IMG/VR virus record: IMGVR_UViG_3300005080_000001
Location: 68,519-132,518 of that record
DNA from: a virus
Lineage: Duplodnaviria; Caudoviricetes
Length of the DNA: 64,000 nt
Reading direction: 5' to 3' (one strand)
The first letter of the stretch is position 1. Every line of letters starts with the position of its first letter. Below the pieces are notes generated by a model. The model worked only from the letters and a program-made list of their open reading frames with translations, did not search any database and was not told where the DNA came from. The position numbers and the translations under genes were made by a program. This document shows, one piece after another, positions 6,044-63,898 of this stretch.

Positions 6044-6814
6044 ATGGAAAGAGAAGTGTTATTAAAGGCTAATACAGGAAGTTGGAATTACAATCTACAG
6101 CAGACATTACAGGATTTGATCTTACTTGGACTAGAGAATCATACACCGTCCGATAAAGATTACAAGGTGTTTGTTCCCCCAACATTTGAAGAATTATACA
6201 AGGGTAAAACCTATCATCAAGCGATCATCACAAAGGTTGAAGACCAAGATATCCATGATATCCGCAAGCTTCCAGACTTACTTTACAAGTCTAATATCGC
6301 TTACCTAGAATTGCTGTTCTCTCAAGATATTGTATTTAAAGATTGTGAGGAGTTAAACTTCCTATATTCCGTTAGACATGAGATTGCTAGAATGAATCTT
6401 CCACAGCTATTCAAGTCTACAGGCGGTATGTTTAATCAGCGCATGAAGAAGCTAGACCATGCGACAGAAGGTACACAGCATTTAGTAGATGCCTATGGTT
6501 GGAATACAAAGGAAGGTTTACATACTTTTAGATCGGCACAGCTACTTGTAAGATACGAAGAAACTGATTTTAAAGACTTCGAAAAGGCACTACGCTATGA
6601 AGACTATGAGAGACAAGCATTGCTTGATATCAAGAATGGGTCAATGACAAAGGAGGAATTCATTCGTTTTGTTACACAGTATCACGATAATGTATTTACT
6701 CCTTTAAAAGAGAAGTACTGTAGCTATAAACCAAATGAAGAATTGAAGCAAGCGATTGATTACAACATCATGAATCTTGTTGAAAAATCTGTATTAAGCA
6801 AAAGTATTGCATAG
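6044..6814 (+). CDS. Pol beta-superfamily nucleotidyltransferase
   Basis: GSWNYNL...SDKDY motif, N-x-x-LELLF. Confidence 0.75.
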   Translation: MEREVLLKANTGSWNYNLQQTLQDLILLGLENHTPSDKDYKVFVPPTFEELYKGKTYHQAIITKVEDQDIHDIRKLPDLLYKSNIAYLELLFSQDIVFKDCEELNFLYSVRHEIARMNLPQLFKSTGGMFNQRMKKLDHATEGTQHLVDAYGWNTKEGLHTFRSAQLLVRYEETDFKDFEKALRYEDYERQALLDIKNGSMTKEEFIRFVTQYHDNVFTPLKEKYCSYKPNEELKQAIDYNIMNLVEKSVLSKSIA

Positions 6815-6823
6815 GAGGATATT

Positions 6824-7276
6824 ATGAGCAAATTTATTATTTACTGTAACGGTGGATGCCGTGGGAATCAATCTGACGAAAATATTGGTGGTTGGGGTGC
6901 ATTATTAAGTTACAATGACAACGAAAAGGAACTATATGAAGGCGTTCGTAATACAACCAATAATAAGATGGAGTTAACAGCTTGTATAAAGGCGCTTGAA
7001 GCTATTCATGGCAATACAGCAATTCCAGTTGAGATTTATGTTGATTCTGCGTATGTTTGCAATGGCATGAACTCTTGGGTAAAAGGTTGGATAGCAAGAG
7101 GTTGGAAGAAGGCAGATAAGAAGCCAGTAGAGAATCAAGACTTATGGAAACGACTTGTTCATCTAGCTTCAACACACGATGATATCAAGTTTTTAAAAGT
7201 CAAAGGTCATGCTGATAATGAAGGTAATAACCGAGCAGATGCATTGGCAAATAAGGCTATGGATGAAATATCATAA
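6824..7276 (+). CDS. rnhA: Ribonuclease HI (first catalytic Asp replaced by Asn)
   Basis: IYCNGGCRGN, TTNNKMEL, YVDSAYV, KPVENQDLW, VKGHA, NNRADALA. Confidence 0.93.
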   Translation: MSKFIIYCNGGCRGNQSDENIGGWGALLSYNDNEKELYEGVRNTTNNKMELTACIKALEAIHGNTAIPVEIYVDSAYVCNGMNSWVKGWIARGWKKADKKPVENQDLWKRLVHLASTHDDIKFLKVKGHADNEGNNRADALANKAMDEIS

Positions 7277-7315
7277 AACAAAAGTATTGCAATTAAGTTA
7301 ACGATTTAGTATAAT
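7276..7315 (+). promoter_or_regulatory. Repeat motif overlapping sigmaA promoter of primase
   Basis: AAACAAAAGTA-TTGCAA, 17 bp, TATAAT. Confidence 0.75.
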
Positions 7316-8790: not shown

Positions 8791-8824
8791 ATAAAACAAA
8801 AGTATTGCAATAAGGAGTGATATT

Positions 8825-9463: not shown

Positions 9464-10742
9464 GCAACTTAATTTAATAAAGGAAAAGATGGGCGTAGAA
9501 AATCTTTGGTCATTCTCCAAAGTGGGAACTTACGATCAATGTAGTTGGCTATATAAGTTAAAGTATATTGATAAGATTCGTGTCAAAGGTGACAACTGCT
9601 ATACTTATTTTGGTTCGATTGCCCATGAAATCATACAGGATTTCTATGACGGCAAGCATGAATTTGGTGGGATGTTGCCTACATTTGATGCAAAAGTTGT
9701 AGAATGGCAAATGAAAGATGATCCGAAGCTTAAATTCAACTCCGATAAGGAACGTGATGGATATATTGAAAATCTTCGTCATTACTTTAAGTTTGTTCAA
9801 ACAATCCCTTATAAAGTAATGAATGAAAGAGCCGTATTAGCTGTATTCCATGGATTAGAGAAGTATGTATTCCAAGGCTATATCGACTCGGAATTTTTGG
9901 ACTCCGATGGAAATTTAGTTATCATGGACTACAAAACGTCTAGTATGTCTGGATTTACTGGCAAAGACTTACTCAAAAAGGCTCGTCAGCTTATTATCTA
10001 TGCTATTGGCATCACTCAGCACGGTCGTATGATTGGTGACGAAATGCGTAAGTTTACTATGGACAAGATTAAAATCCGTTACGATATGATGAAGTATTGC
10101 AATATCACATACACACAGAAGAATGGCAAAGAAACAGTTACCAAAGCAGAACGAAGACTATGGGTGGCTCATTTAGCTAATAAGCTTCGTAAAGACTTAG
10201 AAGACGTAGCTAAAGACATTGAGAAGCTTGAAAAAGAGATTGCCAAGCTAGTCAAGAAAATGAATATGAAGAAGACTACTCCAGAAGATGCAGAAGGATA
10301 TAGTGTGGGAATTGGCGACATTGAACTCGAAATCGAACAGCTTCGTCTCGTAAATTTTGACCCTATTAAAATTAATGAGTTAATTGAGAGCGCAATTGCT
10401 GAGAACAACCTTTCTGTAATGCCTCAATTCATTCAAGATAAGTATGTTGTAACGAATTGTATTATTGATGTGCCATTGACAGATGAAGTAGTAGAAGAGT
10501 GCAAGCAGATACTAGTGGCTACACTTGATACTATTGTTACGAAAAGCAAGGAAGAGGATAAAGAAGAAGCGTTTAACCGCTCTCGTATCGACAATTCTGA
10601 CTCCTATTATTGTGTAAACCTTTGTGATATGAAGGATTACTGTAGTTTCTATAAAGAGTTTAAAGAGCATAATGAAATGTTTGCTACAAAGAAAGAACAG
10701 CCTTCACAGGCAGAAGTACTAGCAATGTTTGGTTTATCTTAA
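9447..10742 (+). CDS. PD-(D/E)XK nuclease, Cas4/AddB-like, with coiled-coil insertion
   Basis: WSFSK...C, GYID, IMDYKT, QLIIYA, C-terminal Cys cluster CVNLCDMKDYC. Confidence 0.82.
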   Translation: MRLTYEQLNLIKEKMGVENLWSFSKVGTYDQCSWLYKLKYIDKIRVKGDNCYTYFGSIAHEIIQDFYDGKHEFGGMLPTFDAKVVEWQMKDDPKLKFNSDKERDGYIENLRHYFKFVQTIPYKVMNERAVLAVFHGLEKYVFQGYIDSEFLDSDGNLVIMDYKTSSMSGFTGKDLLKKARQLIIYAIGITQHGRMIGDEMRKFTMDKIKIRYDMMKYCNITYTQKNGKETVTKAERRLWVAHLANKLRKDLEDVAKDIEKLEKEIAKLVKKMNMKKTTPEDAEGYSVGIGDIELEIEQLRLVNFDPIKINELIESAIAENNLSVMPQFIQDKYVVTNCIIDVPLTDEVVEECKQILVATLDTIVTKSKEEDKEEAFNRSRIDNSDSYYCVNLCDMKDYCSFYKEFKEHNEMFATKKEQPSQAEVLAMFGLS

Positions 10743-10759
10743 AGCAAATGTTTTGCAAT

Positions 10760-10959: not shown

Positions 10960-11059
10960 AAACAAAAGTATTGCAATTACAAAAGGTTCATGATATCTTA
11001 TAAGAGTAGCAAGTGGCAGTAAGCCATTAAAAATAAATAACAAAACAAAAGTATTGCAA
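10960..11059 (+). promoter_or_regulatory. Paired repeat motif and promoter upstream of dnaE
   Basis: Motifs at 10960 and 11043; TTGCAA-17-TATCTT with TG extension. Confidence 0.7.
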
Positions 11060-11083: not shown

Positions 11084-14000
11084 TTGACAACAGTATCAAT
11101 TAAAACATCAGATTTACCATCCAATGTATTTAGCGATATGTTCTACACGGCAATTCATTTACACACAGACTTATCAAACCAAAACATGGTTGAGGTAGTT
11201 AATACCTATAAGCAATATATCGACAAAGCAGTTGAAATGGGGCATAAAGCTATCGCCTTCACAGAACACGGTAATGTACTAAGTTGGTATAATAAGAAGA
11301 AGTATGCTGAGTCCAAAGGGTTAAAGTACATTCATGGTTGTGAAGTTTACGTAACACTGACTCTTGAAGAGAAGAAGCGCGACAACTTCCATATGATCTT
11401 ACTTGCCAAGAACCATGAAGGGTTCAAAGAATTAAACAAGATGGTATCAACTGGATTCGATAGAAAGGGCAACAACTTCTATTACAATCCACGTATTTCA
11501 TGGGAAGATATTCAGAACACATCTGACAATATTATCATTTCAACAGCTTGTTTGGGCGGTATTGTCTGGCAGTTACACATGAACCGTGCAGGCAGTGTCT
11601 ATTCAGAAAGGGAACTTGCAAAAGTTATTAAATGGTTTTCTGAGAACAAGCATCGTGTTTTCTTAGAAATTCAGCCTCATAGACATCTTGAACAGATTCA
11701 ATACAACAGATTATTGAAGAAGATTTCTGAACAGACTGGAATCCGCTTAGTAGCAGGATCTGACACACATGCTTTAAATGAAGAGTACGATAAGGCTCGT
11801 AAGGTACTTCAAAAGGCAAAACGTATTACATTCACGGATGAGGACAGTTTTGATTTAAGCTTCCATTCATATGAGAAGATGTTTAAAATGTTCCAAGCGC
11901 AATATACATTTACTGATGAAGAGATTCACCAAGCAATGCAAATGACAAACGTAATTGCAGATATGATTGAGCCATGGGACATTGATTACAGTAAGAAGTA
12001 TCCGCAGTTATACGATAATCCAGAGGAAGTATTCCAACAAAAGATTGCAGAAGGTATCAAGTATCGTGGATTGGATAAGAAGTCTTTAGAAGTAAGAAAG
12101 GCAAATGCAGAACGAATTCAGCATGAATATGAAGTATATAAAGCGAATGAAGCAATTAACTATCTTCTACTTGAGGATGCTGTTAAGTCATATGCACGTA
12201 GCCAAGGTGTACGATATGGATTTGGTCGTGGTTCGGTTTCTGGAAGCCAAATAGCTTATTTACTCCGCATAACTGAAATGAATGCCATTGATAGAAACTT
12301 AAACTTTGCACGTTTCATGTCAAAAGAGCGTATTTCTCTTGCGGATATTGATACTGACTTCCCACCAAATAAGCGACATATTGTACAAGAATGGCTGTTA
12401 AATCATGAAAAGCTACACTGCGCTCACATTATCACCTATAATACAATTGCCCTCAAGGGATGTATCCGTGATGTTGGTCGAGGACTAGATATACCGTTAG
12501 ATGTAGTAGATGAGATTGCAAAAGGTGTAGAGGATAACGAAATGTACTGGAGAGAACGTCATCCAGAACTATTCCATTATGTTGACCTTATTCAAGGAAC
12601 AGTAGTTTCAATTGGCGCTCATGCTTGCGGTATTGCCGTATCTCCAATTCCATTGGATGAAAACATGGGTACAATTACTACAATTGATGCAGAAACTAAG
12701 CAACCAGTTGTATTAACACAAATCAACATGAAAGAAATTGATGCTCAAAACTTCGTAAAACTTGATGTTCTAGGTCTTGATACAGTTGAGTTAATTAGTG
12801 AAGCCGTTGATTTAGCAGGTTTAAAATGGGAAAGTATTCTTCCAGAAAACCTTGATTCAGAAGACAGCGCAGTATGGGAGAGTGTCCTAGATAACAATAT
12901 TGGTATTTTCCAATGGGAATCAGACTTCGCTCATCAGATTTATAAAGACCTATTCAGCAAAGAAACGATTGAAAAGATTAAACAGGTTCATCCTAAGTTC
13001 TCATATATGGACTTATTCTCGCTTGGTAATGCGATTATCCGTCCTGCAGGTGCTTCTTATCGTGATGATGTAGTACAAGGTAACTTCTATGACAATGGTC
13101 ACGAAGTATTAAATAAATTCCTTTCTCCTACACTTGGACGACTTGCTTATCAAGAGCAAATTATCGACTTCCTTGTACAGTTCTGTGGTTACACAGGCGG
13201 TGAAGCGGACGTAATTCGTAGATCGATAGGTAAAAAGGATCGTGAAACATTAGAGAGACTACTACCAGAGATTAAGCAACGATTTATTGATACAATGATT
13301 GAGAAGTACGAGACTCGTAATGTAACGGCAGAGCAAATCTCTGAGCCTTTCATTCAAGTAATCCTTGATGCTAGTAACTACGGTTTCAGTATTAATCACT
13401 CAGATGCGTATAGTTGGTTAGGATATGCTTGTGCATGGTTACGTTATTACTATCCATTGGAGTTCATTACAGCCAATTTAAACGTAAATATCAGTAAACA
13501 GGAGAAGACTGCTAAGTTAGTAGAATATATGAAGTCTAAAGGCATTACTCTAAACGGTATTAAATTCCGTTATTCAAGAGCAGGTTACATGTTTGATAAA
13601 GAAACAAACTCTATTTACCAAGGTGTCGAGCCTATTAAGTTCTTAAATGCTCAAGTAGCAGAAGGACTATATAGCTTAAGAGGTAACCATTATGCAAGCT
13701 TTACAGACTTATTGATTGATATTAAAGATGGTATTACCATTATGATTGATGGCGATCCAGAACGTGTTGCAAGAATCAGAGATGTTTTCACGATCGATCA
13801 TGAAGATTTTAATCCAAAAGTATTGCAAAAGTTAGAGAAGGATGGTAAGATAGAATACGTGGAAGATAGAAGCGTTACTATCAACTCCAGACAAATGAAT
13901 ATACTAATCTCTTTAGGATATTTCAGCGAATTTGGTGGCAACAAAAAACTTCTAAGAATCTTTGAATTCTTCGAGAAGAACTACAAGAAGACACTTAAGC

Positions 14001-14416
14001 TGAAATCTAAAAAAGAACGTTATGCAAAAGTATTGCAATTTGAATTAGAACAAGTAGAGGAAAGTCTTTCATTGGTAGAACAATGTGAGTGTGAGTTAGC
14101 TTATCTCGGACATATCGAGACAAAGGATGTCAAAATGCTACCAAACATTATGATGCTTGTAGAAACACAAAAGAACAAGACGTACACTCGTGCAAAAGCT
14201 TATCAGTTTGCAACTGGTGAAGTTCGTGAATTCAAGATTGGTAGCCGTACATATGCTAACGTGCCATTTGAAGAAAGAGATGTTATCCAGATTATTAATG
14301 CCGAGGTTAAGCCGAAGAAGAAGAAGATTAACGGAGTATGGCAGAATTCAAATGAACAAGAATTATGGTTGAAAGAAGTTAAATTCATTCGAAAAGGTGG
14401 AGTAATTGGTGAGTAG
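11084..14416 (+). CDS. dnaE: DNA polymerase III alpha subunit (family C)
   Basis: PHP motifs HLHT, FTEHG; GRGS; ADIDTD; KLDVLGL; YQEQ; YGFSINHS. Confidence 0.96.
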   Translation: MTTVSIKTSDLPSNVFSDMFYTAIHLHTDLSNQNMVEVVNTYKQYIDKAVEMGHKAIAFTEHGNVLSWYNKKKYAESKGLKYIHGCEVYVTLTLEEKKRDNFHMILLAKNHEGFKELNKMVSTGFDRKGNNFYYNPRISWEDIQNTSDNIIISTACLGGIVWQLHMNRAGSVYSERELAKVIKWFSENKHRVFLEIQPHRHLEQIQYNRLLKKISEQTGIRLVAGSDTHALNEEYDKARKVLQKAKRITFTDEDSFDLSFHSYEKMFKMFQAQYTFTDEEIHQAMQMTNVIADMIEPWDIDYSKKYPQLYDNPEEVFQQKIAEGIKYRGLDKKSLEVRKANAERIQHEYEVYKANEAINYLLLEDAVKSYARSQGVRYGFGRGSVSGSQIAYLLRITEMNAIDRNLNFARFMSKERISLADIDTDFPPNKRHIVQEWLLNHEKLHCAHIITYNTIALKGCIRDVGRGLDIPLDVVDEIAKGVEDNEMYWRERHPELFHYVDLIQGTVVSIGAHACGIAVSPIPLDENMGTITTIDAETKQPVVLTQINMKEIDAQNFVKLDVLGLDTVELISEAVDLAGLKWESILPENLDSEDSAVWESVLDNNIGIFQWESDFAHQIYKDLFSKETIEKIKQVHPKFSYMDLFSLGNAIIRPAGASYRDDVVQGNFYDNGHEVLNKFLSPTLGRLAYQEQIIDFLVQFCGYTGGEADVIRRSIGKKDRETLERLLPEIKQRFIDTMIEKYETRNVTAEQISEPFIQVILDASNYGFSINHSDAYSWLGYACAWLRYYYPLEFITANLNVNISKQEKTAKLVEYMKSKGITLNGIKFRYSRAGYMFDKETNSIYQGVEPIKFLNAQVAEGLYSLRGNHYASFTDLLIDIKDGITIMIDGDPERVARIRDVFTIDHEDFNPKVLQKLEKDGKIEYVEDRSVTINSRQMNILISLGYFSEFGGNKKLLRIFEFFEKNYKKTLKLKSKKERYAKVLQFELEQVEESLSLVEQCECELAYLGHIETKDVKMLPNIMMLVETQKNKTYTRAKAYQFATGEVREFKIGSRTYANVPFEERDVIQIINAEVKPKKKKINGVWQNSNEQELWLKEVKFIRKGGVIGE

Positions 14417-15025: not shown

Positions 15026-15250
15026 TTGAAAAAACGTATTGAAAAGAAGTTTCTTAAGAAGAAGTATGGCAACGAGTATAAAAAGGGATATGGCGTAATC
15101 ATAGGAAACGAGAACCGCTTTCACGGATTTAAAATAGGCGACATCGTTAAGATTGTAGGTACTGAGTACGGTACTTTGAAGTGTACTAAAAAAGATGGCG
15201 AACTCGAACTTATGCAGTACGTAGAACGCAAACATATTAAACAATTATAA
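15026..15250 (+). CDS. Basic hypothetical protein
   Basis: AGGAGG RBS, TTG start. Confidence 0.65.
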   Translation: MKKRIEKKFLKKKYGNEYKKGYGVIIGNENRFHGFKIGDIVKIVGTEYGTLKCTKKDGELELMQYVERKHIKQL

Positions 15251-15276
15251 AACAAAAGTATTGCAACGAGGAGCGA

Positions 15277-15552: not shown

Positions 15553-16131
15553 ATGACTAAACAGGTATATATCGCAGGAGACATGCTTCCGAAAGGTTCT
15601 CAAATGCTTCGTGCATTAGAGCGTGAACAAATCAAAGAGATTGGCTTAGATTTCTATAATCCAATGGATAATAAGGAAATCAATTCGAAAGAAGAAGTAA
15701 GCAACGATGGACTAGCTGAACGAATTGTTAAAGCTGATACAGATGCAATTGAATCAAGTGATGTTATTGTAATCGAGCCACAACCATTCGCTTTAGGAAC
15801 AATGGTCGAACTTGGGCAGGTAAAAGGTCGCAAAGACCTTGCCAAACAAATAATCGCCATGGCTGACGATTTCAATGGTTCTGTCTCAGAATTACTAAAC
15901 CAAATTATTGAATTAGCTGAACAAGTTGATAACCAAAAGGTATTTCCTCATTACGAAGATATTCGTAGATTCCCAAATGCAGGAGCAGATGAAGTAGGGG
16001 ATCGTAGAAGCCTAGGAATCAACCAGTATGTATATGGCGTATGCTTAGACCTCACAGATGGCAAGGGCTTCTATGATTGGGATGAAGTATTGGCAGAACT
16101 TAAGAAAATCAAGAATGACCCAACAATATAA
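15553..16131 (+). CDS. Nucleoside 2-deoxyribosyltransferase family protein
   Basis: VYIAG, FYNP, D-x-x-AI..SD, GTMVELG. Confidence 0.85.
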   Translation: MTKQVYIAGDMLPKGSQMLRALEREQIKEIGLDFYNPMDNKEINSKEEVSNDGLAERIVKADTDAIESSDVIVIEPQPFALGTMVELGQVKGRKDLAKQIIAMADDFNGSVSELLNQIIELAEQVDNQKVFPHYEDIRRFPNAGADEVGDRRSLGINQYVYGVCLDLTDGKGFYDWDEVLAELKKIKNDPTI

Positions 16132-16170
16132 AACAAAAGTATTGCAATTAATATTTGTAGGTGCTACAAT
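16131..16170 (+). promoter_or_regulatory. Repeat motif overlapping sigmaA promoter
   Basis: TTGCAA-17-TACAAT with TG extension. Confidence 0.7.
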
Positions 16171-18865: not shown

Positions 18866-19144
18866 ATGGGACTGTCAACCGATCTAGGAGTCAAGCTATT
18901 TGGTAATGTATCAACCTTATTAGTTATCGTTGGATTTATTTATGGTGGATGGAAAGTCTATCATTCAAGATTCTACAGAGAGTCTTTAGAATCAGAGTTT
19001 CGTGGTGGCGGTTATTCAGCAGGATTCAATCTATTCATTGCTATAATATTGTTTTTAGTGTATACCTTTGTATTCGCAGTCGTAACCGTTCTCCTTCCTT
19101 TGATCGCTCTTTATATCATATGGGGAGTACTTTTCGGATTTTAA
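18866..19144 (+). CDS. Small membrane protein
   Basis: Multiple hydrophobic segments; AGGAG RBS. Confidence 0.65.
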   Translation: MGLSTDLGVKLFGNVSTLLVIVGFIYGGWKVYHSRFYRESLESEFRGGGYSAGFNLFIAIILFLVYTFVFAVVTVLLPLIALYIIWGVLFGF

Positions 19145-19174
19145 AAGGGCTAAATATTTAGTCCTTTTTTCATT

Positions 19175-19271
19175 AAACAAAAGTATTGACATTAATCTAG
19201 TCAATTGCTACAATGATAAAGTATTAAGTTAGGAATTTACTAAAAAATATACTTAAACAAAAGTATTGCAT
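19175..19271 (+). promoter_or_regulatory. Paired repeat motif and sigmaA promoter of recD2
   Basis: AAACAAAAGTA-TTGACA-17-TACAAT; second motif at 19255 abutting AGGAGG. Confidence 0.8.
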
Positions 19272-19284
19272 AGGAGGAAATGAA

Positions 19285-21570
19285 TTGGGAAACATCATTA
19301 AAGGAACAGCTAAACTAAAGCGAATCTTATTTCCAAAGGGTGTATATACAACAGATGGTGGATTTACTATAGCATCATTTGAACCTATCAATGTAGATGA
19401 AGGGGAGTTGGAAGTAAACTCTAGCTACGGCACATTCACAATTAAAGGTGAACTGCCTCCACTTGATCCTAAAGCAACATATTACTTCACTATTGAAGAA
19501 GGCGATCGCCATCCAACATTCGGAGTAAGTTATGAAAATATCTTCATGCGACAAGATGTTAATCTTGATACAAATGATAAAGAATCAGTTAAGAACTTCT
19601 TGCGAATCATCATGACAGAAAAGCAAGTAAAGGCTCTATATGAAGCTTTCGATAACCCAATGGAGATTATTGAATCCAGAGACATCGAGAAGCTTACAGA
19701 AGCAAAGGGTATTGGATATAGAACAGCAGAACGTATCATTAATCACTATGAGTCTCAAAAGGATTATACGTTTGCCTATATGGAACTAGGAGAATATGAA
19801 TTGTCTCCAAAGACGATCAGAAAGATTGTTACTTTCTACGGCAGTCCAGAACTAGCTGTACAAAAGATAAAAGAGAATCCATACGAACTAATGAAGATTG
19901 ATGGCTACGGATTTAAGAAGTGCGATGAAATCTTCTTTAAAACTGGTGGAACTCCAAATGCTCCTATCCGCATTCTTTCATTCCTTGTACATACATTACA
20001 AGAAGAAGCAGGTAAAGGTCATACATGGTCTTCTCCAAATGACATTCTGAATGCTACATTTGAGAAGATTCCTACTGCAGACAAGACTGAAGTAGGTAAA
20101 ATGCTGATTAGTAATCCAGATATATTCTTCTTAAACGAAGATAAGAGCAGAATCTCTCTTAAATCATTTGTGCTACTTGAGGGTCTAGTTTCTACTCAAC
20201 TACATCGTATTCTTAACACTGAAAACACATTTGAATATGAAGGTTGGGAAGAGGATGTCCTAAAGACAGAGGAACACCAAGGTTGGAGTTTTACTGACCA
20301 ACAAAAAGATGGTATGAGTATGATGCTCGACAATAACATATCTATTCTTCAAGGTTATGGCGGTACTGGTAAAACAACTACTCTTAAAGCAGTTCTTGAT
20401 GTATTAGAAGAAAAAGGTTATCTGTATGCACAGTGCGCACTTTCTGGGAAGGCATCAAACAATTTAACATTGGTAACTGGTAAAGATGGCAGTACAATTC
20501 ACCGCTTACTAGGCTTCAATCCATTAGAAGGCAAGTTTATGTATGATCAAAATAACCCGTTGCCCTACGACATTGTCATTGTCGATGAGATTTCAATGGT
20601 AGATGCACGTTTATTTGCTCACTTATTACTTGCTATACGTACTGGTGCAAAGTTAATCATGTTAGGAGATAGTCAACAGTTAGAATCAATTGGTATTCCA
20701 GTTATGATTCCTATGATTACTTCTGGATTAATTCCTACATTAACATTAACTCAGATTCATAGACAGGCTCAAAAGTCTGCTGTGGTAACAGACTCTATTG
20801 CAATTCGTAAAGGTCTACAGGTAGTTAAGGAATCAAAGGGTCGTGTAATCCATGGGGAACTGCAGGACTTGGAGTATGAATTGGTAGAGAATGATGAAGA
20901 AATCTTTGTCCATGTTCTGAGAGAATTTTATAAGTATATGAAGAATGAGGACATTAAAGACATTCAAATTCTTACACAGGTTCGTACTAAAGGCGCTAAC
21001 TCATGTCTAGCAATTAACCGTGCATGTCAGAAGATTTACAATCCTCATGGAGAAGGACAGAAGCAAGTAGAGATTGGTAATAAGGAAAAGGGTACTGATT
21101 ACTTCCTTCGTGAAAGAGATAAAGTTATCAATATCCGAAACAACTATGACTCTGTTGATGAGTATGGAAGAATATGTCCTGTATTCAATGGCAACGTAGG
21201 TATTTTAGAGTCATTTGGCAGTGACGATGATGGCAAATACATGCTGATTGATTTTGAGGGAATTGGTAAAGTTAAGATTTATGAGGACAACTACAATTCT
21301 ATTGAATTAGCATATTGTATCACCGTGCATAAGAGCCAAGGTTCATCAAGCAAGATCATTATCATTGCATTCCCATATCACTATTTACTTAATAGCCGTC
21401 AGCTTATTTACACAGCAATTACTCGTACCAGAGAGCATTGTGTTGTTGTAGCGAGCAAGAAAACGCTTGTACAGGCTATTAACAAGGATGATGTATCCAA
21501 TAAGCGTACTTATTTAGCAGATTACTTAAAAGAACTTGAGGAATCAAGCGTTGCCTCTAATTCAAAATGA
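19285..21570 (+). CDS. recD2: RecD2-like SF1B helicase
   Basis: HhH region, GYGGTGKT, VDEISMVD, LGDSQQL, HRQA, ITVHKSQGS, YTAITR. Confidence 0.92.
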   Translation: MGNIIKGTAKLKRILFPKGVYTTDGGFTIASFEPINVDEGELEVNSSYGTFTIKGELPPLDPKATYYFTIEEGDRHPTFGVSYENIFMRQDVNLDTNDKESVKNFLRIIMTEKQVKALYEAFDNPMEIIESRDIEKLTEAKGIGYRTAERIINHYESQKDYTFAYMELGEYELSPKTIRKIVTFYGSPELAVQKIKENPYELMKIDGYGFKKCDEIFFKTGGTPNAPIRILSFLVHTLQEEAGKGHTWSSPNDILNATFEKIPTADKTEVGKMLISNPDIFFLNEDKSRISLKSFVLLEGLVSTQLHRILNTENTFEYEGWEEDVLKTEEHQGWSFTDQQKDGMSMMLDNNISILQGYGGTGKTTTLKAVLDVLEEKGYLYAQCALSGKASNNLTLVTGKDGSTIHRLLGFNPLEGKFMYDQNNPLPYDIVIVDEISMVDARLFAHLLLAIRTGAKLIMLGDSQQLESIGIPVMIPMITSGLIPTLTLTQIHRQAQKSAVVTDSIAIRKGLQVVKESKGRVIHGELQDLEYELVENDEEIFVHVLREFYKYMKNEDIKDIQILTQVRTKGANSCLAINRACQKIYNPHGEGQKQVEIGNKEKGTDYFLRERDKVINIRNNYDSVDEYGRICPVFNGNVGILESFGSDDDGKYMLIDFEGIGKVKIYEDNYNSIELAYCITVHKSQGSSSKIIIIAFPYHYLLNSRQLIYTAITRTREHCVVVASKKTLVQAINKDDVSNKRTYLADYLKELEESSVASNSK

Positions 21571-21574
21571 TTTA

Positions 21575-21668
21575 AAACAAAAGTATTGCAACTAAAATTA
21601 AAAGGTGGTATAATTGATTTTGTGAGGCACTAAATTTATTTATACCACTTAAAACAAAAGTATTGCAA
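21575..21668 (+). promoter_or_regulatory. Paired repeat motif and promoter of nrdI-nrdE
   Basis: TTGCAA-17-TATAAT; inverted repeat GTGGTATAA/TTATACCAC; second motif at 21652. Confidence 0.8.
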
Positions 21669-21681
21669 AGAAGGCGAGAAA

Positions 21682-22056
21682 ATGATTATTGCATACGCAT
21701 CATTGACAGGGAAAGTAAAGAACTTCACGGAACGGCTACATAAGCAGTTCCCAGACAGTGAAATCATCCATGTCAGAAAAGACACTAAGATAAACGAACC
21801 TTTTGTTCTAATCACTTACACATTTGGCTCTGGAGATATTCCAGTAGAAGTCAAGTCATTCCTAGCTAATAACAGTGATCATATCATTGCTGTAGCAGGA
21901 AGTGGAGAACGGAATTGGGGCGCACATCGATTTTGTAAAGCCTCGATTGATATATCAAAGCAATTCAATGTACCACTGCTTCATACGTTTGAAAAGATGG
22001 GCTTTGATTCTGATGTAGATATCGTGGCAAATAAGCTTAGAGAATTGAAAGGATGA
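21682..22056 (+). CDS. nrdI: Class Ib RNR flavodoxin NrdI
   Basis: YASLTGKV, LITYTFGSG, AGSGERNWG. Confidence 0.93.
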   Translation: MIIAYASLTGKVKNFTERLHKQFPDSEIIHVRKDTKINEPFVLITYTFGSGDIPVEVKSFLANNSDHIIAVAGSGERNWGAHRFCKASIDISKQFNVPLLHTFEKMGFDSDVDIVANKLRELKG

Positions 22057-22060
22057 TATA

Positions 22061-24154: not shown

Positions 24155-24158
24155 TTTA

Positions 24159-24248
24159 AAACAAAAGTATTGCAAAAATAATCAAGCTATGCTATTATTA
24201 AGGGGTCGATAATTTTATATTATCACCTCTTAAACAAAAGTATTGCAT
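24159..24248 (+). promoter_or_regulatory. Paired repeat motif, promoter and leader hairpin
   Basis: TTGCAA-17-TATTAT; hairpin 24198-24233; second motif at 24232. Confidence 0.75.
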
Positions 24249-24264
24249 ATCGGAGGAATAAACA

Positions 24265-24723
24265 TTGAAAATAAACAAAAGAGGTCAATCATTTGACATT
24301 ATAAACAGATTCCAATTACAGGACGAAGACGGTAAGGTAGTACCATATTGCCGAGTTAAATTCTATCAAACAGGTCATGAAGCTGTATTTAAAAACTCAG
24401 TTATTGAGTCACTAAACTTCGAAGATCCTTCTTTAAAATATGAAAATGCTCCAGTAGTCGAGGTAGTTGAACCAACTCCAGAACCAGAACCAGAGCAAGA
24501 ATCTAAAACAGTTCTTGTTATGCCAGTTGTTGAAGAAGTGGCAGAAGAAGTCGTTGAAGATAAAAAGCCTGTAATCATGGCTCACTCTCCAAAAGGTGAA
24601 GACATTGAAGTAACAGACCTTGAAGAGTTCGTAGCTGAACATGACTTAGACATGGAAGCTGTTGAGAGTGTTCTTGAAGGGAAGCAAAAGACTCACAAAA
24701 AATGGGGGTTCACTAGAGCATGA
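24265..24723 (+). CDS. Acidic protein with homing-endonuclease-like DNA-binding modules and no nuclease domain
   Basis: N-terminal VKFYQTG...EDP; PEPEPE linker; C-terminal SPKGE..VTDLEEF..H.L....VLEGKQKTHKKW. Confidence 0.6.
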   Translation: MKINKRGQSFDIINRFQLQDEDGKVVPYCRVKFYQTGHEAVFKNSVIESLNFEDPSLKYENAPVVEVVEPTPEPEPEQESKTVLVMPVVEEVAEEVVEDKKPVIMAHSPKGEDIEVTDLEEFVAEHDLDMEAVESVLEGKQKTHKKWGFTRA

Positions 24724-25763: not shown

Positions 25764-25811
25764 ACCAAAAGTATTGCAATAAACTATAAAACGAAAAGAG
25801 GATTTCTTACT

Positions 25812-26138: not shown

Positions 26139-26196
26139 ATAAAAGGGGAGAGTTAATCTCCCCAATTACATACAAAAAAACTAGGAGACAATACGA

Positions 26197-26595: not shown

Positions 26596-26663
26596 TAATA
26601 AATGAATTAAATCACTAACACAAATAAAGCAAATGTATTGCAAATAATAGGAGGCAATTAATA

Positions 26664-27801: not shown

Positions 27802-27845
27802 ATGCAAGAGAGTGAGGTGGGAGCAAATACGAAAGGAGAACGATT

Positions 27846-44827: not shown

Positions 44828-44914
44828 TTGCAATACTTTTGGTTAAGAGGAGTTGATAAAAAACCAAACTCCTCTACCAAAGTTTATTATAATTGAATTA
44901 CATTACTTTGTAAA
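44828..44914 (-). promoter_or_regulatory. Promoter, leader hairpin and repeat motif
   Basis: TTTACA-17-TATAAT; AGAGGAGTT/AACTCCTCT stem; motif next to RBS. Confidence 0.75.
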
Positions 44915-52490: not shown

Positions 52491-52527
52491 TAAATTAACA
52501 CCTCACTTGCAATACTTTTGTTTAATG

Positions 52528-53577
52528 CTACTCTTTGTGTTTCTTAGCTTCTTTTAACTGCTTTAACTTCTCTCGAATCTCTGTTTTAGACTTAGGTTTA
52601 ACGTAATGTTTTGAAGTCGTTGAAATGTCTGAGTGGTTCGCAAGTTCTTGAGCCAGTGTTAAATCTCCTGTAACTTCAACTACTCGGTTAATTGCTGTTT
52701 TACGTAAGCAGTGAGGGTGTAAGTCTTCGATATCAAGGATATATCCAATCTTTCTTACTCGCATATAGATAGATGTTTGAGACATCTTGCGGTATTCTCC
52801 ATCACGTTTAACTACGAAAATAGCATCACATTCTAATCCGTCCATGCTCATACGCATTTCTTTCCATTGTCTTAAGAGGTCAGCAGTCTCTTCTTCAAAA
52901 GCTACTTCTACCATTTTCCCACGTTTTTCCCTTATGTCCTCGAAGATCATATTATCTAAATCTAGGCTAGACCATGTAAGCTTTGCTACAGCACCATTTC
53001 GGTTAGCTGAATCAATCATGATGTGCCAGATTAAAAGATCCTGTATATCGTATTTTCGACCTTTCTCTTTTGCAAGATCTTCGTAAAGAGCCTTTGTAAC
53101 AATATCAACTTGATCTTGAGTTAAGAAGTAATGATTAATTAACTTCTCATCGTTTGCACCCTTCATACGATCTAATTTTCTATCGAATGGATGGATCTCA
53201 ACTGGAATACCATTACGTTTAACAGCCCAGTGGTAATAACTAGATACAGCTGATAACTTCGTATTAATTACCTTCTTGTTATTGCCAAGAGTGTCTTGCA
53301 AGAATCCGATATATCCTTCCATAATATCAACAGCATTTTCAAGATATTCCTCGTCATGAATGTGAATGTTCTCCCACTCTTCTGACAGATAAACCAAGAA
53401 TTGATTGAAGTAGTTTTGATATACTTTATAAGTCGTATCTTTAACATCTTTGTTTTTAATGATGTTGGACTTTAAATACTTCTCGTAGTCCTTAACACTC
53501 TTCTGATTCACCTTGGCTAGTTTATCCTTGGTGAAATATCGTTTATAAACACGTTTTTGTTCTGCCACTATGGACAC
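52528..53577 (-). CDS. Tyrosine recombinase (XerC/D-like, positional equivalent of SPbeta YomM)
   Basis: R (ANRNG), K (REKRGK), HCLR, NHS, HY catalytic set intact. Confidence 0.9.
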   Translation of the reverse strand: MSIVAEQKRVYKRYFTKDKLAKVNQKSVKDYEKYLKSNIIKNKDVKDTTYKVYQNYFNQFLVYLSEEWENIHIHDEEYLENAVDIMEGYIGFLQDTLGNNKKVINTKLSAVSSYYHWAVKRNGIPVEIHPFDRKLDRMKGANDEKLINHYFLTQDQVDIVTKALYEDLAKEKGRKYDIQDLLIWHIMIDSANRNGAVAKLTWSSLDLDNMIFEDIREKRGKMVEVAFEEETADLLRQWKEMRMSMDGLECDAIFVVKRDGEYRKMSQTSIYMRVRKIGYILDIEDLHPHCLRKTAINRVVEVTGDLTLAQELANHSDISTTSKHYVKPKSKTEIREKLKQLKEAKKHKE

Positions 53578-54669: not shown

Positions 54670-54891
54670 TTTTTACACTCTCCCTTGATTGCAATACTTT
54701 TGTTTAATAACTACTTTATAATCTTAACAAAAAAGAGAACAAGTGTCAACACTTATCCTCTGATTTGCAAAACTTTTATTTAACCTAACAGCTTCAACCA
54801 CCCTCTTAAGGGCTGTGGGTTTTTCGGGGATACTGGTTTGTTAAATTCTACTACTATCCCTTGTTCGATTTTTAATAAAACCGCTGTTTTA

Positions 54892-55614: not shown

Positions 55615-55669
55615 AAGTCTTTATATCCTATTATAAAGACTTTTGATTTAATTTGCAATACTTTTGTTT
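55611..55669 (-). promoter_or_regulatory. Repeat motif with sigmaA promoter whose -10 lies in a long inverted repeat
   Basis: TTGCAA-17-TATAAT; TCAAAAGTCTTTATA/TATAAAGACTTTTGA. Confidence 0.75.
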
Positions 55670-62100: not shown

Positions 62101-63781
62101 TAGCTTGTCCAGATTGAATCTGTTTCATAGAAAATGCACTTTGAAGCTTAATAGATGTATCTCTTGCCCATCCTGTACCTAAAATCCATTTAGTAGTATC
62201 TGTCTGCCATTCTGTATTGTGAAGTACGTTCATAGCACTCAAAGCATTTAGATCTGCTTGACCAACCTTCAATGCAATTTGGTTAGATTGTGTTGTTATT
62301 GATGCCTCGGCATTTGTAACTCTACCAGTTAATGTATCTAGCGATGACTGACTAGCTTTTAATCCTATTGCCGTAGTATTAGCTGTAATACTAGTCTCTG
62401 CAGTTGATACTCTACCAGTCAATTTATCTACATCAGTCTGGTTAGCCTTCGCTGAAATAGAATTATTTAATTGAGTAATAGATGTTTCAGTCGTAGACAC
62501 TCGTCCATTTAGATTATCAAAATCTGTTTGACCAACCTTTGACTCTATCTTGTTAGATAACTGAACAATAGAACTCTCTGCATCTCCTACTCTCTTAGAA
62601 TAGGCATCGAACGTTTGTTGAGATACTTTTGATGAAATTTGATCACCTTGAACAAGTAATTGTGCCTCAGTGCTAGAAACTCTGTTTCCAAGACTAGTAA
62701 CATCTGACTTATCGGCTTTAATGCTAACAGCTTCCGTTGTTTGCTTTAACTCTGTATCCATCTTCGTTAAGCGAGTATCGTTCTTATTACCAATGCCAAT
62801 TACAGATGTCAATTTATCAACTTGTGCCGACATCTTAGCCCCAATGTTTAATACTGGAGTCCCAGTTTCCTGTCCATGAAGAATTTCAATTGTATTCCAT
62901 CCTGCCCGAAGTGAAATTGATACAGGTGAAGTACCTGTTCCATTGTATTTACTAGAGTAAACACTTGCTCCGTTTACAAATACGGCAAGACCACCTTTGT
63001 GAGCAATATTTAGAGAAAATGTTTTCGGATTTCTCATATTTACATTTGTAAAGAAATGAGTTATCTGATGATCTCCAGATGGAATTGATAAATTGATATC
63101 ATCATTGATATCAACAATACTACTTGCCTGCATTCCTCTAATCAGTTCAAAAGATGGAGGAGTTTGGTTTAAGTCTGTTCCAGAGATAGGATATTTAGAA
63201 GCCACCCATTTATTCAGACCGACAGCACCGTCAAAATCAGTTTGACTCATTTTCGTAGAAACTTCACCTTGAATACTGGTTACAGATTGTTCTACTGTTG
63301 TTACTCTACCCTGTACTCCATCGAATGCTGACTGATCTGCCTTGTCTTTAAGGTTTAATACAATCTGTTCGTACTGAGTTTGATAAGTAGAAGAGTCTAG
63401 TTTGTCTTGCAAGTCAATTGCAAGTTGATCTTGCTTATCCTTTTGTGTTTGAATATCAATCAGAGACTTATCTAAACTTTGCTTTAATGTCGCCTCACTA
63501 GTTTCTAATGTTGTCGTTCTAGTTGTGACATTATTAATAGCAGTTTGTGCCGTACCGAGTTGCGCATTAAGTTCTTGATTTTCACGCTCTAACTTGTCCA
63601 GTTCTGCTTGAACATCTGTAGGTACTCCAGATGCCCCACCATTGTCATATAGCCAGTTAATTGCCGATACAAGATCATCTTTCGCTAGTGTTTTCAGCAT
63701 CGCTAAATTACCTGCATCTTTAATTGATGCGTATTTATATTCGCCATTCTCTAAATAGCGTATTAATCTTGGTTGTGCCAT
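56177..63781 (-). CDS. Large tail fibre / receptor-binding protein with C-terminal S74 intramolecular chaperone
   Basis: Coiled-coil stalk repeats, CBM-like domains, SSEVWKTDI...GLIAE...WKAIQEL. Confidence 0.88.
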   Translation of the reverse strand: MAQPRLIRYLENGEYKYASIKDAGNLAMLKTLAKDDLVSAINWLYDNGGASGVPTDVQAELDKLERENQELNAQLGTAQTAINNVTTRTTTLETSEATLKQSLDKSLIDIQTQKDKQDQLAIDLQDKLDSSTYQTQYEQIVLNLKDKADQSAFDGVQGRVTTVEQSVTSIQGEVSTKMSQTDFDGAVGLNKWVASKYPISGTDLNQTPPSFELIRGMQASSIVDINDDINLSIPSGDHQITHFFTNVNMRNPKTFSLNIAHKGGLAVFVNGASVYSSKYNGTGTSPVSISLRAGWNTIEILHGQETGTPVLNIGAKMSAQVDKLTSVIGIGNKNDTRLTKMDTELKQTTEAVSIKADKSDVTSLGNRVSSTEAQLLVQGDQISSKVSQQTFDAYSKRVGDAESSIVQLSNKIESKVGQTDFDNLNGRVSTTETSITQLNNSISAKANQTDVDKLTGRVSTAETSITANTTAIGLKASQSSLDTLTGRVTNAEASITTQSNQIALKVGQADLNALSAMNVLHNTEWQTDTTKWILGTGWARDTSIKLQSAFSMKQIQSGQATDNAYALQSEKVNCVAGDIFTGSVYAYSDNITAFSGGKCTMELDFYDNTNTKISITVCDITPKTNGSWQRYTVTGTAPANTAYVILRFHVVRNGRLWVARPMLQAGSFASIFTKHVDELAVDLITRISNNETSITQTNQAISLKADATNVYTKAESDGKVSTAVTDAKAEIKITTDAISNTVSGVSNTVDGLGQKVDSQATQIKQTQDDISLNVVKKDNVITSFNASQEGIKMKAEKIDLIGAVTINALDDSTKALVNNALSSTVTYNGVKIDASNGLVVTKSDNKVKTKINATDGIKIQKSSDGVNFTDVFWTDTTGVIHANGLVIDSSSTLNGTSASTVVANANNGNTANNTVTSNKATWDRSTNINADGTFNTGKLNGTIADSQIASATAWNSAKVNVDDILSDLKVSPVEKIEMSRDWENIKAEYTQISAQATILKVDATAFTNAYNAFDGVTPKIVAEVLATMNTSYTFATTTARDSFKTKFITYYSEKEKLRKALTDAVNNTATSAQSVANTANSTANTVNTTVSNNQSVWGRAGNINADGTINTAKLNGTIADTQIAGVGATKITGTLADNQIASANNWNTAKNSVNDMVSDLKITPLEKNQLSREWESIKAEYVQLSAQATALSVSATSYTTSYNNLDGVTPKVATDILASMTTTYDFGSTTNRDNFKTKMITYFTESEKLRKAISDAINSTANTANSNASSAVSTANTANSTANTANSTASTANTNASTALSTANTAKSTADSASSTASTASTNASQAVSTANTANSTANTALTNANSAQSSINDIMSDLKVTPVEKNQLLRDWQAIQAEYTQLSAQASSLGVSNTSYVSAYTALDGTSPKINAEILVNMSTTYTFASTTTRDTFKTKINTYYTETEKLRKAVNDKIQSNATSAQSTADTANSTANTVNGTVSNNKATWDKASNFNTDGTLNTAKLNGTVSDSQIASANTWNSANTMVTDMSNDNKLTSSEKQSLKREFDQIVNEKTQADSLSSTYGLTSDASYTSYVASYNTLYNYVNPLLSSLTATSSITGSTMRSYFADYYDKASKFGNVVNTKAKALADGAQNTANSATELAQAMANGKMLNADPVFRDSNNGTSVYNNGTAGVVTLTRVANPSDSPTTSPYCMEIKTTATGASPANGGFTFSTPSRANATFIIRIIAKLPVGTTINWASNSTGTGSATKWLTPNAGTGTWTEYVYKVVCGATGTFSSTNYFYSQGGTLPLTWNVAYATVFDMSEMDYSINDMLSDLKVTPLEKNQLSRDWEAIKAEYAQLSAMGTSLGVSVTSYTTAYNNLDSTSPKIATEILASLTTTYTFASTTARDSFKNQLTTYYSEAEKLRKAISDAINSTANTANTTANTANGKADTANTTINNNKATWDRASNINSNGTFNSTKLSGAILDSQISSATNWNGAKSLLDTWKSGTFINGQMIGTNTIFAQQIAIGDFTNLSQINEEKNPNGYPTVLLNNKRYFKIGNGAYAPMTVMANTYVEFLVNDEYYIAFNGYRDTGLTTLNAIFRYYYSDGTWENAGSVSVLPTTADTRIAKNLKITVAPNDTKTLTAVNLFFEKDGTAGSGYYYVRDIEVRKRYTGQLIVDGSIKAQQIDVANLFADNGFITNLKSQDIDATRIKTGQLLGIYVRSDGTNAFSYMSGGSIVSKSKVASVETWVDEGLVRVKGLVSMLSLSEDNLSIGATGKSGYGSITYTAPTSDPSQNIFSLWGVGKVVLESNQSDIVLKGRAQIQGVDSAGVALNFPDANSVRFDSYGNITSPSTMISDATWSVKDGDGRLRLLLPVGKGATGGNEYHSWSGGHRFNHDGRLALGLYTKADNSTLLQFYGQAHFKYWSGGNYFECKNSADNGFIPIYASAFNIGSSEVWKTDIKKYEKSALDVIANTNIMTYKYKADVEESENPHTHVGLIAEYAPKEVQSKEGNAIDSYAMVSVAWKAIQELSEQVRYLKDKLNNR

Positions 63782-63803
63782 GTTTTATAATTTCACCCCT
63801 TAC

Positions 63804-63898
63804 TTGCAATACTTTTGATTAATGATTTATTAATTTTGGGCGTAATTAGCCCACATTTATTGTACCACTCCTACATTTTTATTGCAATACTTTTGATT
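63804..63898 (-). promoter_or_regulatory. Paired repeat motif, promoter and leader hairpin of the tail fibre gene
   Basis: TTGCAA-17-TACAAT; TGGGC/GCCCA stem; second motif 78 bp downstream before AAGGGGTG. Confidence 0.8.

Follow-up and report, generated by a model that had tools for sequence, protein, structure and literature searches.

A dense array of co-oriented 19-bp words reaches the late genes of a YonO-less phage and is a candidate operator of an MrpR/SroF-family repressor

Elements of the kind addressed here have already been described as part of the switch known from the phages SPbeta and phi3T. The repeated element of SPbeta, SPBRE (Lazarevic et al. 1999 as cited in PMC10516654), is bound by MrpR in ChAP-seq (PMC10516654), and the single late operon of SPbeta is transcribed by YonO (PMC5467207). 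In phi3T, SroF binds as a monomer to an asymmetric box, of which it reads 24 of 26 bp, at many genomic sites, and a crystal structure shows monomeric SroF on the 26-bp phi3T box (PDB 9RD5; bioRxiv 10.1101/2025.11.27.690993). We found 11 copies of SPBRE in SPbeta, all co-oriented and located at promoters or immediately ahead of a ribosome-binding site (RBS), and 35 copies of the 16-nt core of the phi3T box, likewise all co-oriented and many of them immediately ahead of a Shine-Dalgarno (SD) sequence; the phi3T late operon contained none.

Here, we analyzed a 64,000-nucleotide stretch (“the window”; positions 68,519 to 132,518 of record IMGVR_UViG_3300005080_000001) of an SPbeta-like, Bacillus-type phage (Caudoviricetes). 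A search for AANCAAAAGTATTGCAA allowing up to 2 mismatches detected 31 copies between positions 6796 and 63898, 20 on the plus strand (6796–28385) and 11 on the minus strand (37656–63898). A preceding sequence-only reading had put their number at about 31, and positions and strand split were reproduced exactly. In 100 dinucleotide-preserving shuffles of the window the word occurred 0.19 times on average and twice at most. Searches of the whole phage and of its relatives had also been recommended. The former revealed 68 copies in the entire 132.5-kb genome: those at 1–22 kb are all on the minus strand, those at 24–97 kb are all on the plus strand bar one, and those at 106–132 kb are again all on the minus strand. 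Hence, 67 of the 68 copies are co-oriented with their own transcription arm, and the earlier claim that orientation follows transcription holds beyond the window. The word extends 2 bp further upstream, where T is present at position -2 in 62 of 68 copies and A or T at position -1. The full-length motif of 19 bp, T-W-AA(A/G)CAAAAGTATTGCAA, amounts to ~27 bits and has TAA built in. The word itself is unstructured, and no Rfam-type structure is involved.

The same word is found in three relatives, in 47–59 copies each, at a median protein identity of only 56–61%. The copies reside largely at matching gene junctions, so that not only the word but also its placement ahead of orthologous genes has been retained (odds ratios of 22 and 13). 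In one relative, G3, most copies carry TTGCAG, a poorer -35. As previously claimed, most copies in the window sit at gene junctions: 28 of 31 are intergenic, and three are inside ORFs (13812, 14022, 42987). They were also said to start often in the stop codon; genome-wide, 21 of 68 copies begin between -3 and +5 nt relative to the upstream stop codon. The window copies are the following (“pre-RBS”, ahead of a ribosome-binding site; pairs are given with their spacing).

6796–6812, plus: pre-RBS, AGGAGG directly after, ATG 6824; overlaps upstream ORF end
7276–7292, plus: promoter, starts in upstream TAA; TTGCAA, 17 bp, TATAAT (7310–7315)
8794–8810, plus: pre-RBS, stop 3 nt before, ATG 8825 14 nt after
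10742–10758, plus: degenerate (2 mismatches), starts in stop codon; then terminator-like hairpin and T-run
10960–10976, plus: weak promoter, TTGCAA, 17 bp, TATCTT; first of a pair, 83 bp
11043–11059, plus: pre-RBS, ahead of DnaE-type polymerase gene, start 11066
13812–13828, plus: inside polymerase gene, reads N-P-K-V-L-Q; TTGCAA, 17 bp, TAAGAT; perfect copy in relative G1
14022–14038, plus: inside polymerase gene; kept in G3 with the TTGCAG ending of that lineage (synonymous change)
15250–15266, plus: pre-RBS, start 15277
16131–16147, plus: promoter, starts in stop codon; TTGCAA, 17 bp, TACAAT (16165–16170)
19175–19191, plus: promoter with consensus -35, TTGACA, 17 bp, TACAAT; after terminator; first of a pair, 80 bp
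19255–19271, plus: pre-RBS, ahead of RecD-like helicase gene, start 19285
21575–21591, plus: promoter, TTGCAA, 17 bp, TATAAT; first of a pair, 77 bp
21652–21668, plus: pre-RBS, ahead of nrdI, start 21682
24159–24175, plus: promoter, TTGCAA, 17 bp, TATTAT; first of a pair, 73 bp
24232–24248, plus: pre-RBS, start 24265
25763–25779, plus: starts in RNR beta stop codon; next gene start 32 nt on
26627–26643, plus: pre-RBS (1 mismatch), start 26664
27785–27801, plus: 1 mismatch, immediately past strong hairpin; 44-nt leader before next start
28369–28385, plus: pre-RBS, starts in stop codon; gene start 28405; final copy of the plus arm
37656–37672, minus: starts in stop codon of gene 37672–38304; then hairpin
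40609–40625, minus: pre-RBS; second of a pair, 79 bp
40688–40704, minus: promoter, TTGACA, 17 bp, TATGAT (40665–40670); starts in stop codon
42987–43003, minus: inside tail/baseplate gene (1 mismatch), reads K-A-K-V-L-R
44828–44844, minus: pre-RBS, past hairpin; then AGAGGTG, ATG
52507–52523, minus: pre-RBS, fills gap from YomM-like recombinase gene to gene for 2524-aa tape measure
54689–54705, minus: pre-RBS, start 54669
54765–54781, minus: degenerate (2 mismatches), then terminator-like hairpin embedding TTGACA, 17 bp, TAAGAT
55653–55669, minus: promoter, TTGCAA, 17 bp, TATAAT (55630–55635); starts in stop codon
63804–63820, minus: pre-RBS, ahead of 2534-aa gene, ATG 63781; second of a pair, 78 bp
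63882–63898, minus: promoter, TTGCAA, 17 bp, TACAAT (63859–63864)

Two placements prevail. Approximately 40% of the copies provide a sigmaA-type promoter with its -35 hexamer and with an A-rich upstream half. A clear -10 lies exactly 17 bp downstream of the copies at 7276, 16131, 19175, 21575, 24159, 40688, 55653 and 63882 and a weaker one downstream of 10960 and 13812, close to the nine or so such promoters proposed before. Genome-wide, ~27 of 68 copies possess a -10 at this distance as compared to a background of 5.5% (p about 7e-17). In the promoter copies, AAACAAAAG occupies positions -46 to -38 and agrees at 8 of 9 positions with the proximal UP consensus, which Estrem and colleagues reportedly defined in 1999 as AAAAAARNR. 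These features would suit a positive transcription signal, i.e. a half-promoter (UP plus -35) optimised for host RNA polymerase or the target of a sigma-like/LuxR-type protein. The exact 17-bp distance between TTGCAA and good -10 hexamers and the presence of a phage-encoded “sigma factor” (phrog_5767), whose HTH is region-4-like, point in the same direction, and the invariance of the word in diverged phages would be accounted for if its reader came from the host. However, ~25 copies lack a -10 at 16–18 bp, and in these the SD starts 0–9 nt past the word end; a transcript begun at such a copy would therefore miss its ribosome site. The prevalence of TTGCAG in G3 also disagrees with a promoter function. 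The TTGACA variant is limited to copies having a -10, which argues that it is not sigmaA but another reader for which TTGCA is maintained. The sigma-like/LuxR-type protein (346 aa; genome 17,062–18,102, minus strand), which occupies the place of yonO in SPbeta, is a poor candidate for this reader, its recognition helix varying among G0, G1 and G3; Sigma70 region 2 was not found in the phage genome. Altogether, we regard a positive signal as unlikely.

In the second placement, comprising ~35–40% of the copies (about 25), the word fills the gap from a stop codon to the next ribosome site; a few further copies precede terminators or fall within genes. A stable hairpin precedes several copies (z-scores -3.3 to -4.5 in 3 of 7 leaders). 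Such positions raise the question whether the pre-RBS copies act in RNA, in processing, as translation enhancer or operator or in antitermination, with the TTGCAA end being put to secondary use in the promoter copies. The strict polarity, the close spacing to the SD, the 21 copies that start in or adjoin a stop codon and the preceding hairpins, reminiscent of single-stranded A-rich cleavage or standby sites, would all fit. Nevertheless, we consider a role in RNA improbable: the word of promoter copies lies upstream of the start site and yet in exact register with the -10, and structure is lacking. Moreover, the single inverted copy, which directly adjoins the -35 of a LexA-box promoter and is retained in G1, would appear in RNA as the complement. 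This conserved copy at an SOS promoter points to recognition of the word as DNA, and it is also unable to serve as -35, at variance with a positive signal. The pre-RBS placement is shared by the boxes that SPbeta and phi3T repressors bind as DNA and therefore does not demand an RNA role. One RNA-seq run of the host species contained no reads from the phage studied here.

The array resembles SPBRE/MrpR in that an asymmetric repeat is co-oriented with transcription at lytic promoters or pre-RBS, with copies sometimes paired 60–80 bp apart, and in that an MrpR-family integrase-fold protein is encoded, whose operon has its own site. The sequences are unlike (ATACAAAnAATATGTAT against AAACAAAAGTATTGCAA, 10 of 17 identical in the best register), and SPBRE covers spacer and -10, whereas the word covers the UP/-35 region, which upholds the earlier view that the word is not SPBRE itself. 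While SPbeta has its 11 copies in the early arm only and leaves its late genes to YonO, the 68 copies here are spread across all modules including heads and tails, and no YonO homologue was found in the phage. The array is thus unusually dense and extends to the late genes of a YonO-less phage. With the SroF system it shares a long asymmetric, A-tract-containing box, read in phi3T by a monomer, and a LexA-controlled promoter adjoining the repressor region. However, the phi3T box is unrelated in sequence and is 26 rather than 19 bp long. The dissimilarity of the word to both SPBRE and the phi3T box, and its location over UP/-35 instead of spacer and -10, count against a repressor of this family as reader.

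Mycobacteriophages provide further parallels. The stoperators of L5 and other cluster A phages are ~30 or more asymmetric sites in a single orientation relative to transcription, located in both arms where the gaps between genes are short, with one overlapping the -35 of the early promoter; silencing of the entire prophage is their proposed role. The present array is similar, but gp71 of L5 is a small helix-turn-helix repressor with a 13-bp site, in contrast to the integrase fold of the candidate reader here. A polar block of elongation was reportedly demonstrated for L5 by Brown and colleagues in 1997; here, we infer it. Pope and colleagues are said to have described in 2011 the start-associated sequences (SAS/ESAS) of cluster K phages. 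SAS are conserved asymmetric words of putative function just upstream of many start codons, often after an inverted repeat, and would resemble the word in both features. In contrast to the word, SAS contain the ribosome site, and no SAS is known that doubles as -35 or is linked to an integrase-fold repressor.

The candidate reader is an MrpR/SroF homologue of 460 aa with integrase fold, encoded outside the window (genome 47,662–49,044). Its match to Pfam MrpR_N_CB (4.4e-15) passes the curated cut-off, and PDB YopR/MrpR is matched at 2.5e-13. For its AlphaFold2 model, phi3T SroF-DNA (9RD5), SroF-Sar, YopR and MrpR rank above true recombinases. Compared to MrpR it has ~140 aa extra in its N-terminal part, and in the alignment, which is uncertain in this part, it lacks the C-terminal segment holding the phi3T contacts Q300 and K304. 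A degenerate word copy is present in the repressor gene's own promoter in G0 and G1. The MrpR-like proteins of the relatives are 57% and 42% identical overall (50–65% in the CB/CAT core), and the predicted contact position equivalent to Y26 of phi3T SroF varies among the three phages, yet the word is identical or matches at 16 of 17 positions. Repressor and operator usually diverge in step, and the invariance of the word despite diverged proteins counts against a repressor.

We nonetheless consider it rather probable that the 19-bp word serves this master repressor as its dispersed operator. The earlier proposal that one phage protein silences replication, RNR and tail genes through the word, by analogy with SPBRE/MrpR and the L5 stoperators, has become the best-supported reading, owing to the MrpR/SroF homologue, the shared placement rules and the inverted copy; binding and roadblock are its conjectural steps. 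The repressor would bind the long asymmetric box as a monomer, as proteins of its family do. At the ~27 promoter copies bound protein would block host RNA polymerase, and at the ~25 copies between stop codon and RBS it may, clamp-like, halt read-through transcription in the manner of stoperators; alternatively, pre-RBS copies may cooperate with a promoter copy 73–83 bp upstream. Because the phage is without YonO and the replication, nucleotide-metabolism, head and tail modules all have host-type promoters, each module would need direct silencing, which would explain 68 sites instead of 11–35. Also in favour of this reading, sigmaA-like promoters that lack the word are concentrated at 41–46 kb and 96–105 kb of the genome, which we read as putative immunity and accessory-gene regions. 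Pre-terminator copies and tight SD spacing are not required by the repressor model.

As a further alternative, the word could be a recombination linker at module boundaries, serving homologous exchange between co-infecting relatives or a YomM-like tyrosine recombinase (window 52528–53577, minus strand). Homology breakpoints were found at 13 of 32 junctions with the word and 15 of 92 without it in comparison to G1, and at 16 of 34 and 14 of 97, respectively, in comparison to G3; among the phage proteins, the YomM-like one ranks second in conservation (79% and 82% identity), and an accessory region of SPbeta contains one exact word copy. However, the enrichment is mostly gone once the comparison is limited to junctions conserved on one side or both, and 68 direct repeats would lead to deletion of the genome if a recombinase were active on them. 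Furthermore, the word lacks the dyad-and-spacer layout of recombinase core sites, and the exact -35 register is left unexplained, making a linker highly improbable.

Searching both strands of the window with AANCAAAAGTATTGCAA and allowing up to two mismatches, we recovered exactly the 31 copies of the repeat listed in the sequence-only reading, 20 on the + strand (6796 to 28385) and 11 on the - strand (37656 to 63898), where 0.19 copies are expected by chance. The complete record, a single contig of 132,518 bp with 36% G+C whose final 64 kb form the window, holds 68 copies, 67 of which follow their transcription arm: those at 1-22 kb are all on the - strand, those at 24-97 kb all on the + strand except for a copy at 50,267, and those at 106-132 kb again all on the - strand. 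Thus, the proposed coupling of orientation to transcription applies to the window and to the genome alike. Counting bases by position over the copies revealed that the motif, first described as 17 bp, is truly 19 bp long: AA(A/G/c)CAAAAGTATTGCAA is preceded by A or T at position -1 and, in 62/68 copies, by T at -2. This asymmetric word carries ~27 bits of information, conservation is absent beyond it, and a TAA is always present within its first four bases. No second motif of like copy number was detected in a k-mer search of the genome, the runner-up having 6-7 copies.

The copies differ in what surrounds them. In ~27 cases, designated the promoter class, the terminal TTGCAA provides a -35 hexamer with a TATAAT-like hexamer at a spacing of exactly 17 bp, a rule that holds at only 5.5% of positions across the genome (p about 7e-17). 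Four promoter copies carry TTGACA instead of TTGCAA, a variant confined to this class. Here, AAACAAAAG occupies -46 to -38 and resembles the proximal UP-element consensus. In ~25 copies, the pre-RBS class, there is no -10 hexamer at 16-18 bp and the Shine-Dalgarno (SD) sequence starts 0-9 nt past the word. Moreover, 21 copies begin -3 to +5 nt relative to the upstream stop codon, so that some intergenic gaps consist of the word and the ribosome site alone. These counts bear out the earlier remark that copies often begin in a stop codon or end at the ribosome site. The pre-RBS copies also argue against reading the word as a promoter for a sigma factor or RNA polymerase specific to the phage: with no -10 and with the SD sequence so close behind, a transcript begun at one of them would have lost the ribosome site. 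The following window copies are located inside genes, where they are read in one shared frame, (P/A)-K-V-L-(Q/R):

13812-13828, + strand: intragenic copy
14022-14038, + strand: intragenic copy
42987-43003, - strand: intragenic copy

The exact 17-mer recurs within several IMG/VR contigs, and extension of the motif scan to three complete relatives of 126-132 kb detected 47-59 copies in each, which are strand-biased too. G1 and G3, distant complete relatives bearing the word, have about half of their genes in common with the phage studied here (G0), at median protein identities of 61% and 56%, respectively. Despite this distance, G1 carries an identical word, and in G3 only the last base is changed (TTGCAG). 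At junctions upstream of orthologues, comparison of G0 with G1 counted the word as shared at 20, unshared at 14 and absent from 52 (odds ratio 22), and comparison with G3 gave 13, 15 and 50, respectively (odds ratio 13). Among the intragenic copies in the polymerase gene, one is perfect in G1 and the other is present in G3 with the G ending of that lineage, which is a synonymous change. The kept word, its kept junction positions and the intragenic copies in such distant relatives indicate, at the level of sequence comparison, that the word is under selection as a word. Word-bearing junctions are also homology breakpoints towards the relatives ~3x as often as other junctions, but this enrichment weakens once the comparison is restricted to conserved junctions, making it a weak test of mosaic boundaries.

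The candidate reader of the word is a 460-aa MrpR/SroF homologue with an integrase fold, encoded outside the window at genome 47,662-49,044. It matches Pfam family PF22822 MrpR_N_CB (4.4e-15, 56.5 bits; curated cut-off 27) and the YopR/MrpR crystal structures in the PDB (2.5e-13). The best structural matches of its AlphaFold2 model, which has a pLDDT of only 66.5, were 9RD5, 9RGL, 8BJ6 and 8A0A, with phi3T SroF on DNA, the SroF-Sar complex, YopR and MrpR ranking above true recombinases. At the box-I arginine position, G0 has K, G1 has R and G3 has E, and Y replaces the H of HxxR; the register of this alignment depends on 21-25% identity with MrpR. The protein (L231:7662-9044, numbered on a piece of the G0 genome) possesses an additional N-terminal helical part of ~140 aa that is missing from MrpR and SroF. 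It aligns without the C-terminal segment that holds the contact residues Q300 and K304 of phi3T SroF, which might fit the shorter box (19 bp vs 26 bp). A degenerate copy of the word is found in the promoter of the repressor gene itself, in G0 as well as in G1. The predicted recognition helices are largely conserved among G0, G1 and G3; overall, the G1 and G3 proteins are 57% and 42% identical to that of G0, with 50-65% across their CB and CAT domains. With proteins so diverged, an invariant word is somewhat unexpected for a repressor-operator pair; the SPbeta and phi3T SroF proteins share 29.5% identity and their boxes are unrelated. A search for intermediate relatives, addressing co-variation of protein and word, returned the three known types followed by a drop to 24-28% identity.

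A second candidate, a 346-aa protein assigned to PHROG 5767 'sigma factor' (L229:17062-18102 on another piece of the G0 genome, - strand), has a GerE/region-4-like helix-turn-helix and is syntenic to SPbeta yonO. It makes a poor reader candidate, as the recognition helix of its C-terminal helix-turn-helix differs widely among G0, G1 and G3. No Sigma70 region 2 (Sigma70_r2) was found in the genome. Homologues of the 346-aa protein occur in Staphylococcus 6ec/SEP9-like, Enterococcus VPE25-like and large Clostridioides phages.

Is the word read as DNA or as RNA? Seven times in the window a promoter copy is followed by a pre-RBS copy 73-83 bp further on, and the leaders of three of these seven pairs fold clearly better than shuffled sequences. 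Terminator-like hairpins come after a few copies. The pre-RBS copies might act at the RNA level. The sole inverted copy speaks for DNA: at genome 50267-50341 (L231:10267-10341) it adjoins the -35 of a TTGACA-18-TATAAT promoter, which is followed by a LexA box AGAACAGATGTTCT, an arrangement kept in G1. A copy in this orientation can neither supply a -35 nor yield the same RNA, so its placement points to recognition of the word as DNA. The LexA-box promoter is situated 1.2 kb downstream of the repressor gene. The first gene past the LexA box encodes a 169-aa product without Pfam match, a candidate SOS-controlled antirepressor that may be comparable to Sar; prediction of a complex between the repressor core and this product returned no verdict (score 0.00). 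Between paired copies at window 21603-21651 and 24200-24231, some inverted repeats have a left arm that takes in the -10 hexamer, so the full hairpin can form only in read-through RNA and never in a transcript begun at that promoter.

Judged by protein comparison, G0 is a distant SPbeta-like phage. The terminase is 47% identical to that of SPbeta, and matches were also obtained for the DnaE-type polymerase, the RNR genes, the tape-measure protein and the YopP-like and YomM-like tyrosine recombinases; no YonO homologue was found in the G0 genome. In SPbeta, MrpR binds the SPbeta repeated element (SPBRE) in ChAP-seq and represses its promoters (PMC10516654). SroF of phi3T acts as a monomer that reads 24/26 bp of an asymmetric box present at many genomic sites (bioRxiv 10.1101/2025.11.27.690993). 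SPbeta holds 11 SPBRE copies, 11/11 co-oriented, each either within a promoter spacer or immediately ahead of a ribosome site. For the 16-nt core of the crystallised phi3T box (KY030782.1, <=2 mismatches) we counted 35 copies, 35/35 co-oriented with transcription, many of them directly before an SD sequence or as promoter spacer and none in the YonO-driven late operon (1-50 kb). Hence, the SPBRE/MrpR analogy drawn earlier stands as far as the placement rules and the presence of an MrpR homologue are concerned: in all three phages, long asymmetric multi-copy boxes are co-oriented at lytic promoters or directly before ribosome sites. It does not extend to the sequence, as the G0 word differs from both SPBRE and the phi3T box, nor to the promoter part covered, which is UP/-35 in G0 versus spacer/-10 in SPbeta and phi3T. 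With L5-type stoperators the word has in common asymmetric sites, short intergenic gaps inside operons and a single orientation relative to transcription, but the L5 repressor is of the gp71 helix-turn-helix type whereas an integrase-fold protein is the candidate reader in G0.

By analogy, the element probably acts in the manner of SPBRE and the phi3T SroF box, as an operator array of the MrpR/SroF homologue, and its layout recalls that of L5 stoperators. A fuller scheme, which we offer as possible but rather doubtful in its entirety, would assign the word a dual use. The A-tract and TTGCAA would serve host RNA polymerase as half of a promoter, and a monomeric integrase-fold repressor would clamp these very 19 bp. 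At the ~25 promoter-less junctions, the bound repressor would form a polar roadblock, a role suggested by the likeness to L5 stoperators. That the word stays invariant in phages with 56-61% protein identity could be due to a double constraint, as promoter half and as operator. The roadblock network would stand in for the YonO-based late control of SPbeta, where YonO transcribes the 37 late genes as one operon (PMC5467207), so that silencing of the yonO promoter is enough. In G0, word-bearing host-type promoters precede head, tail and baseplate genes (63882, 55653 and 40688 in the window), and the repressor would need to act at each, which rationalizes the high number of sites.

If the fuller scheme is correct, a true stoperator network would exist beyond the actinobacteriophages, in this case based on a recombinase fold. 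If the operator reading holds, a single protein acting through a single word would keep an entire prophage or phage-plasmid of 132 kb silent, together with its late structural genes. The SroF/MrpR switch would then have wider generality and scale further than the 10 sites initially mapped in SPbeta suggest, and the system would offer a natural way to ask whether elongating RNA polymerase is stopped in a single direction by a monomeric integrase-fold clamp. The principle is already known; the case stands out for how dense the sites are, for their extension into late genes and for how well the word is conserved. For annotation of an uncultured or poorly studied clade, the dense array provides a marker of lytic promoters and module boundaries.

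SPbeta (L001, NC_001884) holds just two copies of the word, both in the yokK-yolA accessory region: an exact 17-mer upstream of yokK and a one-mismatch copy upstream of yolA (L001:11256-11272 and L001:12518-12534), the latter being the -35 of a TTATAAT promoter. Their location in an accessory toxin/immunity region hints at past exchange with the clade of G0. Among the matches listed for the exact word in bacterial genomes, each was a single copy, and none of the at least 120 bacterial loci is related to G0; this is consistent with the ~280 chance matches estimated for 596 Gb. No paper describing the word was retrieved by a full-text literature search. The word is absent from Clostridioides phage pCD1602_4, which has the closest polymerase (43% identity). 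This phage (CP069348.1, 132,519 bp) carries a one-strand repeat of its own, CCACTATAAATATTAT, with 9-10 copies and zero on the opposite strand.

G0 is found in assemblies of a ~6-Mb bacterium and encodes a RepA_N initiator and a UvrD helicase. When 10 kb of the window were compared with published phages by megablast, only a short RNR match and no close relative came up. One RNA-seq run of the host species, which is without reads of this phage, gave 0 reads on window 19000-38999. The gene of the YomM-like tyrosine recombinase (window 52528-53577, - strand) is located in the tail operon directly upstream of the tape-measure gene; its product ranks second in conservation across the relatives (79% and 82%), on par with the terminase, and an exact-sequence look-up of it gave no match. 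Word-free sigmaA-like promoters concentrate at 41-46 kb and 96-105 kb of the genome, which we read as putative immunity and accessory-gene regions. Strong promoters of this kind at genome 41381-45640 (L231:1381-5640), three of five with GTGTTGAC(A/T) in common, are positioned just upstream of recombinase and repressor genes and are probably active in lysogeny.
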